From: Gemmatimonadales bacterium
GTDB taxonomy: Bacteria > Gemmatimonadota > Gemmatimonadetes > Gemmatimonadales > GWC2-71-9
NCBI GenBank assembly: GCA_035505915.1
Contig: DATJQI010000011.1
Coordinates: 44,221-108,220 of the forward strand
DNA length: 64,000 nucleotides
Direction: 5' to 3'
Shown piece by piece: positions 32,683 through 46,822 of this stretch. Under the pieces are notes generated by a model. That model was not told where the DNA came from. It did no database searches and saw nothing but the letters and a program-made list of their open reading frames with translations. The translations under genes and the position numbers were made by a program. The first letter of the stretch is position 1; each line of letters starts with the position of its first letter.

Positions 32683-33452
32683 GATTTCTTGCGGCGCCGC
32701 CCGCGCGGCTTGGCGGCCGCGGGCACGGCATCGATCGACACCGGACCTTCGTCGCCCCGCGCGAGCATCCCGAGGTACGCTTCCACCCGGGGATCTTCGG
32801 GACGCCGCTCCCGCAGATCTTCCCACACCCGCCGCGCGGTCAGGCCGTCCCCGGACAGGTAGCACGCCAGCCCCAGCATCGCGGCCGCGTCCAGGAAGTT
32901 GGGGCGATCCCGCACGATCACCTGAAATTGCTCCCGGGCCTCGAGCACGCGCCCCGCTTCGAGCAGCAGACGCCCGAGCTTATACCGCAGATCGTGGAAT
33001 CCGGGTCCGAGCGACAGCGCCGCCTGGTACTGCGTGATCCCTTCGGCCAGGCCGCCGGCCTCGACGTAGGCATCCCCCAGCCCGGCATGATGATTCGCCA
33101 GCTTGGCCGCGACGTGTCCCGCGAAGCCCCGCTGGGTGTCGCTCCCCACCTGCCCCGCCCGGCGGAGCGAGGCGTCCGCCTCGTCCTCGCGGCCGAGCTG
33201 GTTCAAGACCAGCGCCCGGTGCACGAGGGCTTCGACGTACCTCGGGTTCAGCTCGAGCGCTTCGTCCAGCTCCTCGAGCGCCTTGTCGAACTGCCCCACC
33301 AGCGAGTACGACAGCCCCAGCAGGTGATGGGCGTCCGCGAAGGCGCGCCCGGTCTCGACGACGTCTTCGATCAGATGAATGGCGCCGTAGTAGTCACCGA
33401 GCTGGAACCGCTCCCGCGCCTGATTGACGAGATGCTCAGGACTGGCTTCCAT
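32679..33452 (-). CDS. TPR-repeat protein (no signal peptide seen)
   Basis: 257 aa with ATG start. Canonical TPRs: GDYYGAIHLIEDVVE, HHLLGLSYSLVGQFDKALEELDEALELNP, etc. Confidence 0.8.
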   Translation of the reverse strand: MEASPEHLVNQARERFQLGDYYGAIHLIEDVVETGRAFADAHHLLGLSYSLVGQFDKALEELDEALELNPRYVEALVHRALVLNQLGREDEADASLRRAGQVGSDTQRGFAGHVAAKLANHHAGLGDAYVEAGGLAEGITQYQAALSLGPGFHDLRYKLGRLLLEAGRVLEAREQFQVIVRDRPNFLDAAAMLGLACYLSGDGLTARRVWEDLRERRPEDPRVEAYLGMLARGDEGPVSIDAVPAAAKPRGRRRKKS

Positions 33453-34401
33453 AGGCTCCCTCGTACCAGGTGACGAACTGCCGGATCCCGTCTTCGATGC
33501 CGACGCGCGGCCGGTAGCCGAGCTCGGCGGCGGACCGCGAGAGGTCGGCGGCCGTGCGTTCCACGTCCCCCGCCTGCATCGGGGCGACGTCCACCCGCGG
33601 CGTGACGCCCAGGGCCGCGCCGATCAGCGCGATGAGGCGGTCGAGCCGCACCCGCCCCCCGCCCCCGATGTTGAAGGCGCGGGATTCGGCGCCGCCCTTG
33701 CGTCCGGTCCAGTCGAGCGCCGCCACCGTTCCGTCGACCGCGTCGGAGATGAAAGTATAGTCGCGTTCCGTCGAGCCGTCTCCGAACATCCGGACGGGCC
33801 GCCCGGCCGCGATGGCCGCGGTGAACCGGTGAATCGCGAGATCGGGGCGCTGCCGCGGCCCGTAGACCGTGAAGAACCGCACGCAGGCGATCCGCAGGCC
33901 GTACAGGTGCGCGAACACCTCCGCCATCAGCTCCGCGGCGCGCTTGGTGGCCGCGTACGGTGAGATCGGGGCCAGCGCCGGGGCTCCCTCCGCGAAGGGG
34001 GCCGGCGTGTCGTTGCCGTAGACGGACGACGAGGACGCCAGGACGACCCGCTTCACGCCGCCCCGCCGGGCCCCGTCCAGGACGCGGGCGGTCGCCCCGA
34101 CATTGGCGATCGTATACCCCGCCGGGTCCTCCAGGGACGGCCGGACGCCCGCCTTGGCGGCCAGGTGCAGGAGTCCGTCGACCCCCTCGAACGGGAGATC
34201 CTGCGCGGCGCAGTCGAGCTCGAGCAGCCGGAACCCGCGCGCCCGGGACAGCGCCGCGAGGTTCCGCTCCTTGATCGCCCGGGGGTAGAAGGCGTCGAAA
34301 TCGTCCACGCCGACGACTTCGTCGCCTTGCGACACCAGCCGCTCACACACGTGCGACCCGATGAACCCCGCGGCGCCCGTCACCAGCCAGCGGCGGCTCA
34401 C
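33436..34401 (-). CDS. NAD-dependent nucleotide-sugar epimerase (UDP-glucuronate 4-epimerase-like)
   Basis: GTG at 34401 (GTGA overlap) gives [17 protein letters not shown]. Catalytic [11 protein letters not shown]. Confidence 0.85.
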
Positions 34402-35333
34402 GTCCGGCGCACGCTCTCGAAGTACGCGATGGTCCGCCGGAGCCCTTCGTCGAGGGGGATCGCGGGCTCCCAGCCGAGGGTGGTCCGGGCGAGCGTGATG
34501 TCGGGCTGCCGGACCTTCGGGTCGTCGGTGGGAAGGGGCCGCTCCACGATGGGGCTGCGGGAGCCGGTCAGCGCGATCACCCGCTCGGCGAGCTGGCGCA
34601 CCGTGAACTCGTTCGGATTGCCGATGTTCACCGGCTGGTTCCCGCCCCGCTCGAAGAGCCGGATGATCCCCTCGATCAGATCGTCCACGTAGCAGAAGGA
34701 CCGCGTCTGATCGCCCCGCCCGTAGACGGTGATCGGCTCGCCCGCCAGCGCCTGGACGATGAAGTTCGACACCACCCGGCCGTCGCGGGGCCGCATCCGC
34801 GGACCGTAGGTGTTGAAGATCCGGATGATGCGCGTGTCGATCTTGTGATACCGGTGGTACGCCATCGTCATCGCTTCGGCGAAGCGTTTGGCTTCGTCGT
34901 AGACGCCGCGCGGGCCCACCGGGTTCACGTTGCCCCAGTAGCTCTCGGGCTGCGGGTGCACCAGCGGATCGCCGTACACCTCGGAGGTGGACGCCAGGAA
35001 GAACCGGGCGCCGGTCGCCTTGGCCAGGCCCAGCGCGTTGTGCGTCCCCAGCGACCCGACCTTCAGGGTCTGGATGGGGAGCTCGAGGTAGTCCACCGGG
35101 CTGGCCGGGCTGGCGAAATGGAAGACGCCGTCCAGCTTGCCTTCGAGGGAAATGAAGGTCGAGACGTCGTGCTTCACGAACGCCCACGCCGGGTTCCCCC
35201 GGAGGTGCTCGATGTTGGCCGGATTGCCGGTGACGAAGTTGTCCATCCCGACGACCTGGTGGCCGCGGGCGATGAGCGCGTCGGAGAGGTGCGAGCCGAG
35301 GAAGCCGGCGGCGCCGGTTACGAGGAGGCGCAT
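34398..35333 (-). CDS. UDP-glucuronate decarboxylase (UDP-xylose synthase-like)
   Basis: 311 aa. [25 protein letters not shown] and [10 protein letters not shown] are typical of UXS-type SDRs. Confidence 0.85.
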
Positions 35334-44500: not shown

Positions 44501-44845
44501 GAGCTGGACGCCGAACTCGGCCAAGGTGCCGTCCTGCACCAGAGCCATCGCGACGTTCAGCGCGGTCTGGCCTCCCATGGTGGGCAGGAGCGCGTCGGGC
44601 CGTTCCAGCGCGATCACCTTCCGCACCCACGCCGGGGTCACCGGCTCGACATAGGTCTGATCGGCCAGCTCGGGATCGGTCATGATCGTGGCCGGATTCG
44701 AGTTGACCAGGACGACCTCGTAGCCCTCTTCCCGGAGCGCCTTCACCGCCTGCGTGCCCGAATAGTCGAACTCGGCGCCCTGCCCGATCACGATCGGGCC
44801 GGAGCCGATGAGCAGGATGCGCTTCAAGTCAGTGCGCTTGGGCAT
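41552..44845 (-). CDS. carB: carbamoyl-phosphate synthase large subunit
   Basis: 1097 aa. Duplicated ATP-grasp modules ([21 protein letters not shown] / [20 protein letters not shown]) and an MGS-like C-terminus. No carA adjacent. Confidence 0.97.
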
Positions 44846-45785
44846 CGACCGCGTCTCTCAGTGTGTCCTCGAACGTATGGACCGGCGCCCACCCGGTGGC
44901 GCGGCGGAGCTTCGTCCCGTCACCGACCAGATGCGGAATGTCGGCGGGGCGCATCAGCTCCGGATCCGCTTCGGGAATGACGTTCGCCTCGAGCCGCCGG
45001 GCGACGCGGTCGAACAGGTCCCGCAAGCCGATCCCCTGCCCGCCCGCCACGTTGTAGGCTTCGCCCGGGACGCCCGTGGTGAGCAGCCGGGCGTACGCAT
45101 CCACCACGTCCCGCACGTCCAGAAACTCCCGCACCGGGTCCAGGTTGCCGACCTTCACCACCGGCGCGCCGATCTGCTTGGCGTAGCGCAGCCGCTGGGC
45201 GAAGGCGGGGACCACGAAGCGCGTGTCCTGCCCCGGCCCGGTGTGCGCGAAGGCCCGGGCCACCACGGCGCGCAGTCCGGTGCGCCGCCAGGCCTCGAAG
45301 ACCGCCGTCTCGGCGCCCACCTTGCTCGCGGCGTAGGGCGAGCACGGGGCCAGGGCGTCGGTCTCCACGCGAGGCCGGCCGTCGGTCGCCCGCCCGTAGA
45401 CCTCGGCCGTGGAGACGAGCAGCAGAACCGGGTCGGCGCGCCCCAGGCGCCGCGCCTCGGCCAGCACGTAGGCGACGCGCGCGGTGCCTACCGCGTTCAC
45501 GGTCCAGGCGTGGCCCGGGTCCTTCGCCGCCTCGGGCCCCGAGGCCACGGCCGCGAGATGGATCACCGCGTCGTACGGCAGGTCGACCGCCATCCGCACG
45601 GACTCCGCGTCGGTGAGCTCGAGCGGCATCCAGCGCACCGCCTGCCGCTCGGCGTCGGTCAAGCCGTCGTCGTGGCTGGCGCGCGTCGGACGCAGGGCGC
45701 CGAACACCTCGTGGCCGTCGGTCAGGAGCCGGCGGATCATCCACCGTCCCACGAAGCCGTCCGCGCCGGTGACCAGCACCTTCAC
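44829..45785 (-). CDS. GDP-4-dehydro-6-deoxy-D-mannose reductase-like SDR (Rmd-type)
   Basis: GTG at 45785 (GTGA overlap with gmd) gives [15 protein letters not shown]. Catalytic [11 protein letters not shown]. Sits directly after gmd. Confidence 0.75.
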
Positions 45786-46822
45786 GCGGTGCGCTCCAGA
45801 TCCGCGTCGACCATCAGCGTGACCAGCTCGGCGAACCCGGTCCGGGGGGTCCAGCCCAGCTCCTCGCGCGCGCGCCGGGGATCGGCCTGCAGGATGTCCA
45901 CCTCGGCCGGCCGGACGAACTTCGGGTCCACCACCACGTGCTTCTTCCAGTCGAGGCCGGCGTGGCCGAAGGCGATCTCGCACAGCTCGCGCACGGTGTG
46001 GGTCTCGCCGGTGCCGATGACGTAGTCGGCCGGGCTCGGCCGCTGCAGCATCCGCCACATCGCGTCCACGTAGTCGGCGGCGTACCCCCAGTCCCGCCGG
46101 GCGTCCAGGTTGCCGAGGCGCACCTCGGTGGCCCGGCCCCGTTTGATCCGCGCGACCGCGTGCGTGACCTTGCGGGTGACGAACTCGAGCCCGCGGCGCG
46201 GGGACTCGTGATTGAAGAGGATCCCGCTCGCGGCGTAGAGGCCGTAGGACTCGCGGTAATTCACGGTGATCCAGTGCCCGTAGACCTTGGCGACGCCGTA
46301 CGGCGAGCGCGGGTAGAAGGGCGTGCTCTCGCTCTGCGGGGTCTCCTGCACCTTGCCGAACATCTCGGACGAGCTGGCCTGGTAGAACCGGGCCTCCGGG
46401 TGGGCCAGGCGTACGGCCTCGAGCAGGCGGGTCACGCCCAGGGCGGTGAACTCCCCGGTGAGCACCGGCTGGCTCCACGAGGTGGGCACGAAGCTCTGGG
46501 CGGCGAGGTTGTACACCTCGTGGGGCCGGGCATCCCGGATGACGGCGGTGAGGGAGTGCTGGTCCAGCAGGTCGGCGGGCACGATGTGGACGCGGTCCAG
46601 GAGGTGGCCGATCCGCTCGTAGGAGTCGTGGGAGGTCCGGCGGACGACGCCGACCACCTCGTACCCCTTCTCCAGCAGGAGCTCGGCCAGGTAGGAGCCG
46701 TCCTGGCCCGTGACCCCGGTAATGACGGCGGTGCGGCGGGGTTGCCCGCCCTCCGGCGCCGGATTAGGTTTCCGCCCCTGCTCGGCCCGGGTGTCCCCGG
46801 GTTGGCGCGTAGTGGAACTCAT
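45782..46822 (-). CDS. gmd: GDP-mannose 4,6-dehydratase
   Basis: [48 protein letters not shown] at 46822 is the only in-frame canonical start. Confidence 0.95.

Follow-up and report, generated by a model that had tools for sequence, protein, structure and literature searches.

The question raised by this locus is why two housekeeping genes, carB and murB, should stand in the midst of genes for the synthesis of nucleotide sugars. The 64,000-nt stretch of Gemmatimonadales DNA analysed here, hereafter the window and the basis of the numbering, carries at 33436–46822 on its minus strand a block of exactly eleven genes, as indicated by frame analysis of third-position G+C (GC3), by a GC3-based gene caller and by the public gene calls for the contig which carries an identical carB. 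Because the whole 64-kb window is 70% G+C, raw lists of open reading frames (ORFs) are crowded with spurious frames. A preliminary description of the sequence had given the same eleven genes, coordinates and order, all of which are borne out, and had regarded carB and murB as odd insertions. Here the context inverts the picture: what surrounds the block is a 64–81-kb one-strand housekeeping array which is conserved across Gemmatimonadales. We consider it likely that the block forms the nucleotide-sugar part of a longer core-genome operon which Gemmatimonadales have inherited vertically, the sugar genes being embedded in the core genome rather than carB and murB in a sugar island. The eleven genes are as follows:

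45782–46822, minus: gmd, GDP-mannose 4,6-dehydratase, 346 aa (TIGR01472, GDP_Man_Dehyd)
44829–45785, minus: Rmd-family short-chain dehydrogenase/reductase (SDR), candidate GDP-4-keto-6-deoxy-D-mannose reductase, 318 aa (PDB matches)
41552–44845, minus: carB, carbamoyl-phosphate synthase large subunit, 1097 aa (NF003671)
40641–41639, minus: murB, UDP-N-acetylmuramate dehydrogenase, 332 aa (NF010480)
40051–40641, minus: WlbB/WbpD-type LbH N-acetyltransferase, 196 aa (PDB 3MQG/3MQH, Pfam Hexapep)
38939–40054, minus: WbpE-type pyridoxal phosphate-dependent sugar 3-aminotransferase, 371 aa (PDB 3NU7/3NYU, Pfam DegT_DnrJ_EryC1)
37938–38942, minus: Gfo/Idh/MocA oxidoreductase, predicted UDP-GlcNAc(A) 3-dehydrogenase, 334 aa (NF040723, GnnA 7BVJ)
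36634–37941, minus: UDP-N-acetylhexosamine 6-dehydrogenase, WbpA/WecC/Cap5O subfamily, 435 aa (TIGR03026)
35318–36637, minus: ugd, UDP-glucose 6-dehydrogenase, 439 aa (NF047673 TuaD, TIGR03026, AglM)
34398–35333, minus: uxs, UDP-glucuronate decarboxylase/UDP-xylose synthase, 311 aa (human UXS1)
33436–34401, minus: SDR epimerase, probable UDP-glucuronate 4-epimerase, 321 aa (PDB 5U4Q, 6ZL6, MoeE5)

Identical proteins are present on a metagenome contig (ENA ERZ27256505, 90.8 kb) and, under the consecutive accessions HTY05096–HTY05107, in an NCBI metagenome-assembled genome (MAG) labelled Gemmatimonadales bacterium, where the names are generic only. Exact look-up of SecA and of a 156-aa ORF returned no record.

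Conservation of the gene order

Relatives were collected by a MurB scan with one genome per GTDB species, which gave at least 80 loci with a MurB 76–94% identical to that of the window; nearly all are labelled Gemmatimonadales, Gemmatimonadota or Gemmatimonadetes. In essentially all loci with a long enough contig the order is rpsD-rpoA-rplQ-(rpmB)-gmd-rmd-carB-murB-wbpD-wbpE-gfo-dhA-ugd-uxs-epi-tpr1-tpr2-bamD-nadD. The junctions are kept as well: the overlap of 17 nt between rmd and carB was found in 58/58 relatives, that of 4 nt between wbpE and gfo in 72/73, the second 4-nt overlap flanking gfo in 55/66 and the 16-nt overlap of ugd and uxs in 59/61. Past the end of the block the epimerase gene overlaps the tetratricopeptide repeat (TPR) gene by 17 or 38 nt in 57 of 60 relatives, and this gene overlaps that of the TPR lipoprotein by 4 nt in 54 of 57. 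In one MAG (DATDEZ01) the whole arrangement occurs on two different contigs (loci L031 and L044), which suggests a mixed-strain bin or a duplication.

The median identity to the window is 77–81% for the sugar genes, 80% for murB, 84% for rpoA, 86% for carB and 57% for bamD; carB, at 84–92% in the relatives, ranks with the best conserved at the locus. When all-against-all pairwise distance matrices were compared with that of carB+rpoA+rpsD, the four wbp-like genes gave a Pearson r of 0.92, ugd+uxs 0.81, epi 0.93 and gmd 0.87, with 0.91 for murB as control. A rank correlation of identity to the window told nothing, most relatives being at about the same distance from it. The sugar genes thus display vertical co-divergence, which is the opposite of a mobile O-antigen island.

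That the block might nevertheless represent the precursor half of an O-antigen or capsule locus, mobile and variable between strains, which came to lie beside housekeeping genes is suggested by its enzyme set, since Gmd/Rmd, Wbp-like and Ugd/Uxs/epimerase enzymes are typical of such loci in Proteobacteria, and also by a hypervariable rmd slot and by two modules which are occasionally missing. This we regard as highly improbable and as largely refuted by the conserved synteny, overlaps and co-divergence: about 80 species share the order and the overlaps, the distances co-vary with those of housekeeping genes (r = 0.8–0.93), and both the GC of the block (0.68–0.72) and its codon-position profile are the same as in the surroundings. 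Nor were transferases, Wzx/Wzy, an ATP-binding cassette (ABC) transporter or mobility genes found in about 81 kb. O-antigen and capsule clusters share with the block the same kinds of precursor enzymes, but the block is without transferases, flippase, polymerase or chain-length genes, is neither variable nor compositionally distinct, and is interleaved with carB, murB and bamD. It is a caution against taking each block of precursor genes for an O-antigen island.

The lack of a glycosyltransferase, polymerase or flippase had been noted before for the block itself, and it holds over a wider region. In the window plus 10 kb on each side (about 81 kb, contig 4444–85467; hereafter the 81-kb region) we found no glycosyltransferase, flippase or polymerase (Wzx/Wzy), ABC exporter or carA, and the unannotated ORFs, which were checked for hidden flippases and polymerases, held no polytopic membrane proteins. 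The sole polytopic protein seen is an LPG_synthase_TM-family protein at 59533–60408.

Transcription and probable translational coupling

From gmd to the epimerase gene the junctions of the block are -4, -17, -88, -1, -4, -4, -4, -4, -16 and -4 nt, negative values being overlaps. All ten therefore overlap, whereas 15/45 of the remaining same-strand junctions of the window do (Fisher p = 1.1e-4). The chain does not stop at 33436, where the block had been taken to end, but runs on through the two TPR genes and bamD, with -17 nt between the epimerase and TPR genes and -4 nt at both the TPR/TPR-lipoprotein and the TPR-lipoprotein/bamD junctions; gaps of 5 nt (bamD/nadD) and 4 nt (nadD/secA) follow. 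The flanking features are:

32679–33452, minus: TPR protein without signal peptide, 257 aa (Pfam TPR families)
31765–32682, minus: TPR lipoprotein with lipobox GSGC, 305 aa
31016–31768, minus: bamD, outer-membrane assembly lipoprotein, 250 aa (TIGR03302, 104 bits, cut-off 81; Pfam YfiO)
30450–31010, minus: nadD (Pfam CTP_transf_like)
27179–30445, minus: secA (Pfam SecA)
46837–47028, plus: rpmB, divergent from gmd (Pfam Ribosomal_L28 at 2e-23)
47036–47057: hairpin terminator ending the rpsM-rplQ operon, nine pairs (seven G-C) and a T-run

The last of these, between the convergent rplQ and rpmB, is the only strong terminator and separates rplQ from the block, within which there is no convincing terminator. 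Terminator-like sites number nine overall against 6.2 +/- 2.8 in shuffled sequence, and so are not in excess. Overlap at all junctions, lack of an internal terminator and conservation in relatives, which we took as the marks of an operon, were all found, and we infer that the block is one polycistronic unit. Since every junction as far as bamD has overlapping start and stop codons, adjacent genes are probably coupled in translation up to there.

Transcription would most likely start just downstream of the rplQ terminator and the divergent rpmB. The transcript would span gmd, rmd, carB, murB, the wbpD-like and wbpE-like genes, gfo, the UDP-N-acetylhexosamine 6-dehydrogenase gene, ugd, uxs and the epimerase gene, and it probably extends into the two TPR genes and bamD, perhaps also into nadD and secA. 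The divergent ATG codons of gmd and rpmB are merely 14 nt apart, so that the promoters would lie inside each other's gene unless the mRNAs are leaderless.

Several points weigh against a single, invariant core operon. The sample is limited to fairly close relatives, with murB at least 76% identical, and a separate search for MurB homologues returned relatives of at least 79% identity only, with no outgroups. One relative (L067) cleanly lacks both gmd and rmd, rpmB being directly followed by carB, and another (L063) cleanly lacks epi, which is thus an optional module; the highly divergent Rmd slot likewise means that part of the block is not invariant. These absences and the variable slot show modularity. 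A sigma-70 consensus scan found no coding-strand promoter, for which reason the single-operon reading is based solely on the overlaps. The product assignments, finally, are all by homology and are worded below as predictions.

carB and murB

CarB matches the NF003671 equivalog model at 1641.8 bits (cut-off 599) over its full length, the MGS domain included, and MurB matches NF010480 at 337.1 bits (cut-off 259). The start of carB overlaps the rmd stop by 17 nt, and the last 27 or so residues of CarB form a variable tail beyond a VRSLQ(E/A)WH motif which is conserved in the relatives compared. Over this tail murB begins, at an ATG at 41639 with a GAGGAG Shine-Dalgarno motif ahead of it. The ATG is kept in 79/79 relatives, where it opens MARK, MASK or MAPK and follows a GGAG-type motif. 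Thus murB shares its first 88 nt (41552–41639), read in another frame, with the 3' end of carB. Around carB and murB overlaps of 17, "possibly 88" and 1 nt had been proposed; all three are correct and the 88-nt one is real. Among relatives it measures 67–103 nt in 77/79 (median 88), the outliers of 301 and 346 nt being probably due to mis-estimated carB stops.

A GTG at 41510, giving a protein of 289 aa and a 41-nt gap after carB, was favoured as the murB start by the GC3 caller and by one database call. It was rejected since the aligned codon is ATC, GTC, ACC and so on in most relatives, all of which have the upstream ATG.

The upstream start gives MurB a basic N-terminal extension of 43 aa (41511–41639), rich in Ala, Lys, Pro and Arg. 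In the relatives the extension has 36–66 aa (median 50), reads MARK.ERRK... and is composed of 24% Ala, 16% Lys, 16% Pro and 12.5% Arg; it is probably disordered. A conserved out-of-frame overlap which encodes such an extension is a small, clean example of overprinting.

One might suppose that carB and murB are specialized paralogues for sugar tailoring, the former supplying carbamoyl phosphate for O-carbamoylation and the latter making a lactyl ether on a non-peptidoglycan sugar, with the housekeeping copies elsewhere. The position of both within a chain of overlapping sugar-nucleotide genes and the unusual, conserved extension of MurB would fit, as would the want of a carA in the 81-kb region, which extends the earlier remark that carB stands here without it. 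Both proteins, however, are full length and far above the equivalog cut-offs, and carB is one of the best-conserved genes at the locus. No MurA-like enolpyruvyl transferase or carbamoyltransferase is encoded in the 81-kb region, and carB-murB persist in L067, which has neither gmd nor rmd. The murB genome scan moreover gave one locus per genome, bar the one MAG in which the arrangement is present twice. Specialized paralogues thus seem very unlikely to us. At the level of equivalog models carB and murB are best read as ordinary housekeeping enzymes, whose position reflects lineage-specific operon architecture and not sugar tailoring. The pyrimidine genes pyrD and pyrF lie some 4–5 kb upstream, and carA is unlinked.

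The Wbp-like genes

The functional reading given in the preliminary description is largely correct. It had ascribed to the four genes which follow murB the WbpA-WbpB-WbpE-WbpD enzyme set; the WbpE and WbpD/WlbB members stand, at 312 and 235 bits respectively, while the WbpB member does not, the Gfo protein being nearest to the GnnA and archaeal type. The best matches did not place the four genes in a different pathway, for example of the legionaminic or bacillosamine type.

The LbH acetyltransferase aligns over residues 4–183 with PDB 3MQG/3MQH (6e-69, 234.9 bits). Entry 3MQG, deposited as a lipopolysaccharide-biosynthesis acetyltransferase, we take to be Bordetella petrii WlbB, and the protein is firmly predicted to be a UDP-GlcNAc3N(A) 3-N-acetyltransferase of the WlbB/WbpD type. 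Its neighbour possesses the Pfam DegT_DnrJ_EryC1 motif (6e-119) and matches WbpE (3NU7/3NYU, 312 bits, 5e-92) and a DesV-like 3-aminotransferase (2OGA, 317 bits); because the two score about equally, C3 specificity of this predicted aminotransferase is supported.

The Gfo protein has as its top NCBIfam model the archaeal UDP-GlcNAc 3-dehydrogenase NF040723 (149 bits, cut-off 450). Its best PDB matches are 3C1A (116 bits) and, as the best characterized, GnnA 7BVJ (71 bits), which is the UDP-GlcNAc 3-dehydrogenase of Acidithiobacillus (bioRxiv 10.1101/2024.11.05.622173). Neither WbpB nor WlbA is represented in the 60 PDB entries which it matches best (E up to 2.5e-5). It is predicted to be a UDP-GlcNAc(A) 3-dehydrogenase of the GnnA/archaeal type and not of the WbpB/WlbA type. 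As it belongs to the same Gfo/Idh/MocA superfamily as WbpB and WlbA the 3-dehydrogenase step is still possible; all enzymes of this superfamily share one fold, and a ranking by fold cannot settle the substrate.

For the 435-aa 6-dehydrogenase only the generic subfamily model TIGR03026 (449 bits) passes its cut-off; two WecC models give 276 (cut-off 459) and 292 bits (cut-off 750), and TviB gives 225 bits (cut-off 592). Its PDB matches are 4R16 (238 bits) and Cap5O (229 bits), and JGI labels the members of its cluster "UDP-N-acetyl-D-glucosamine dehydrogenase." A WecB 2-epimerase was not found in the 81-kb region, nor was one of the WbpI/WlbD type (Epimerase_2), the latter as stated before for the block; a gene for it could lie elsewhere.

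Together these enzymes would convert UDP-GlcNAc to UDP-2,3-diacetamido-2,3-dideoxy-glucuronic acid by 3-oxidation, 3-transamination, 3-N-acetylation and 6-oxidation. In the canonical pathway the order is WbpA, WbpB, WbpE, WbpD, WbpI (PMC10622841). Since the 3-dehydrogenase resembles enzymes which act on UDP-GlcNAc itself, 3-oxidation may come before the 6-oxidation. With no 2-epimerase in the region the predicted product stays in the gluco form.

The block shares with the Wbp/Wlb pathway of P. aeruginosa (WbpA/B/E/D/I), Bordetella (WlbA-D) and Thermus thermophilus HB27 (PMC10622841) the same four chemical steps, encoded adjacently, an aminotransferase close to WbpE and an acetyltransferase close to WlbB, adjoined by a 6-dehydrogenase of the WbpA/WecC subfamily. 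It differs in that its 3-dehydrogenase is outside the WbpB/WlbA subfamily, the WbpI 2-epimerase is missing, and the genes reside in a conserved housekeeping operon without transferases and not in an O-antigen cluster. GnnA of Acidithiobacillus and the archaeal NF040723 enzyme, the best characterized matches of the Gfo protein, resemble the block in pairing a 3-dehydrogenase with a DegT aminotransferase, though the score of 149 bits is far under the family cut-off of 450. GnnA and GnnB, furthermore, act towards lipid A and are partnered by neither an acetyltransferase nor a 6-dehydrogenase.

Alternatively, the Gfo and DegT proteins may be of the GnnA/GnnB type and yield UDP-GlcNAc3N for a 2,3-diamino-glucose lipid A backbone, in which case the acetyltransferase and the 6-dehydrogenase would serve another sugar or a side branch. 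The closest characterized relatives of the Gfo protein do oxidize UDP-GlcNAc itself (NF040723 at 149 bits, 7BVJ at 71 bits), WbpB and WlbA do not figure in its top 60, and the conservation of the genes is that of core envelope genes, which would also be expected of genes for lipid A. The adjoining acetyltransferase, on the other hand, is very close to WlbB 3MQG (235 bits), and WlbB puts an N-acetyl group on the 3-amino position, so that LpxA could no longer acylate it. Conserved overlaps of 4 nt tie the four genes together, and no lpx genes occur in the window or the 81-kb region. On balance a dedicated lipid A function is rather unlikely, although a role in lipid A and one in the synthesis of UDP-GlcNAc3NAcA are not mutually exclusive.

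gmd and the Rmd-family slot

Gmd scores 419.3 bits with the TIGR01472 equivalog (cut-off 415) and 1.7e-130 with Pfam GDP_Man_Dehyd. Its N-terminus carries a 29-aa low-complexity extension, and no alternative in-frame start exists ahead of the Rossmann motif. The gene after it, described earlier as Rmd-like, gives as best PDB matches 4LW8 (155 bits), Rmd 2PK3 (150 bits) and 6X3B (140 bits), and shows no GDP-fucose synthase signature, its match to the Fcl model being partial (34.5 bits, cut-off 500). At the family level it is predicted to be an Rmd and not an Fcl.

This is the fastest-evolving gene of the block, at 42–86% identity in relatives against 76–92% for gmd and carB. Its identities to the window cluster at about 66–72%, 50–54% and 42–48%; the overlaps of 4 and 17 nt on its two sides are retained, and the most divergent variant remains Rmd-family. 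The clades may accordingly differ in their GDP-6-deoxyhexose products.

An equivalog gmd whose end overlaps by 4 nt the gene of an Rmd-family SDR recalls the Gmd-Rmd route to GDP-D-rhamnose in the common polysaccharide antigen of P. aeruginosa and the S-layer glycan of Aneurinibacillus (6X3B, 2PK3). The resemblance to the known Rmd proteins is moderate only (140–155 bits), and the slot falls to 42% identity where its neighbours stay at or above 76%. In view of this divergence between species the stereochemistry of the product may differ from that of the D-rhamnose route. GDP-mannose would pass through GDP-4-keto-6-deoxymannose to a GDP-6-deoxyhexose, either D-rhamnose or 6-deoxy-D-talose, perhaps varying by clade.

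ugd, uxs and the epimerase gene

Ugd, with 495 bits for NF047673 TuaD (cut-off 700), 450 bits for TIGR03026 and 361 bits for AglM, is firmly predicted to be a UDP-glucose 6-dehydrogenase. Equally firm is the prediction for the UXS protein, which matches human UXS1 (2B69, 4GLL) over residues 2–306 (365 bits, 3e-108) and the identical copy of which NCBI names "UDP-glucuronic acid decarboxylase family protein."

The last SDR reaches no NCBIfam equivalog cut-off. Its best PDB match is 5U4Q (238 bits), deposited under a dehydratase name, followed by 6ZL6 (177 bits), deposited as "Epimerase domain-containing protein," MoeE5 (167 bits) and WbpP/WbgU (about 152 bits). Both 6ZL6, presumably the Bacillus cereus enzyme, and MoeE5 we take to be UDP-glucuronic acid (UDP-GlcA) 4-epimerases, and from these matches the protein is probably a UDP-glucuronate 4-epimerase. 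UDP-glucose would be oxidized to UDP-GlcA, from which UDP-xylose and UDP-galacturonic acid would be formed, as had been proposed, the latter as a possibility.

Trios of Ugd, Uxs and a UDP-GlcA 4-epimerase (human and bacterial UXS; 6ZL6; MoeE5) are comparable in the strong UXS match and in its flanking by ugd and an epimerase gene. The epimerase of the block differs from them in being assigned by its nearest matches only and in being dispensable in at least one species.

A probable conserved envelope glycan

Transferases encoded elsewhere would use these sugar donors. Because the genes are conserved like housekeeping genes, the donors probably build a conserved, not a strain-variable, envelope glycan. 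Each enzyme comes from a known family, and the pathways follow the logic of the Wbp/Wlb, Gmd/Rmd and Ugd/Uxs routes. This is not a new kind of system; what sets it apart is the non-WbpB 3-dehydrogenase, the want of a 2-epimerase and of transferases, and its fixation in a housekeeping operon. The locus also shows that genes for nucleotide sugars can match ribosomal and cell-wall genes in the fixity of their order, overlaps and sequence.

Going further, and with a good deal of doubt, one could imagine that Gemmatimonadales hard-wire their donors (2,3-diacetamido uronic acid, GDP-6-deoxyhexose, UDP-xylose and UDP-galacturonic acid) into a translationally coupled envelope super-operon which serves an invariant, possibly essential outer-membrane glycoconjugate. 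In such an operon carB would provide pyrimidines for UDP-sugars, alongside murB for peptidoglycan and the BamD and TPR lipoproteins. The glycoconjugate could be a conserved lipopolysaccharide (LPS) core, or an A-LPS-like anchor with a protein-linking Wbp sugar as in Bacteroidota, and the gene order would be selected for balanced expression and be no frozen accident.

Bacteroidota and Gemmatimonadota are grouped together in the FCB group. The pathway genes of Porphyromonas gingivalis are reportedly scattered on its chromosome and do not form one operon. In the Wbp/Vim systems of this species and of Tannerella forsythia a Wbp-type di-N-acylated uronic acid is likewise a conserved, non-variable envelope component, and in Porphyromonas it links cargo proteins of type IX secretion (T9SS) to A-LPS (PMC4031482, PMC7468200). 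The 81-kb region showed neither homologues of VimA, VimE or WbpS nor T9SS genes, and we treat the analogy as a lead only.

Gemmatimonadota are among the most abundant soil phyla. A search of the literature available found no paper on their LPS, envelope chemistry or sugars, T9SS or this operon. The genes predict a Gemmatimonadales surface with GlcNAc3NAcA, a 6-deoxy-D-hexose, xylose and galacturonic acid as conserved and not strain-variable components.

Neighbouring genes

All but one of the 57 window genes (56/57) are on the minus strand, with a coding density of about 96%, and the surroundings of the block are housekeeping throughout. Upstream are trxB, fumC, a moeB-like gene, smpB, an amidase gene, pyrD, pyrF, rpsM-rpsK-rpsD-rpoA-rplQ and the divergent rpmB. 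Downstream of the two TPR genes, bamD, nadD and secA come radC, relA/spoT, uvrB, tsaE/tsaB and ssb, and further on a gene for a LysM protein, a GalE-like SDR gene, tolQRAB-pal-cpoB, a TatC fusion and hutHUI. Throughout the 81-kb region only rpmB, a SurA-like gene and a small HMA gene are on the opposite strand, and roughly half of all junctions are of 5 nt or less.

The GalE-like SDR (17701–18630, minus), an epimerase or dehydratase, is encoded 1 nt upstream of tolQ-tolR-tolA-tolB-pal-cpoB and scores 160 bits with the GalE model (cut-off 262). It is a further nucleotide-sugar enzyme among envelope housekeeping genes.

At 9336–12986 (minus) an ORF of 1216 aa fuses a full TatC (residues 4–221, TIGR00945, 194 bits) to an LptD_2 beta-barrel-type domain (PF19838, residues 488–949). 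The public gene calls agree with the fusion, and among the members of its 90%-identity cluster are proteins of 1213–1231 aa, to one of which NCBI gives the name TatC. About 10 kb further downstream, outside the window, are two tatA/B genes.

Three minus-strand ORFs with coding-type GC3, at 51638–53098 (486 aa), 8085–9197 (370 aa) and 56570–57430 (286 aa), have no Pfam match, and the first two no NCBIfam match either. The 486-aa product, encoded between the amidase_3 gene and pyrD, begins with a lipoprotein-like signal (LLLGGC). The sole Rfam match in the window is a tRNA gene at 54825–54908 (plus), beside smpB.

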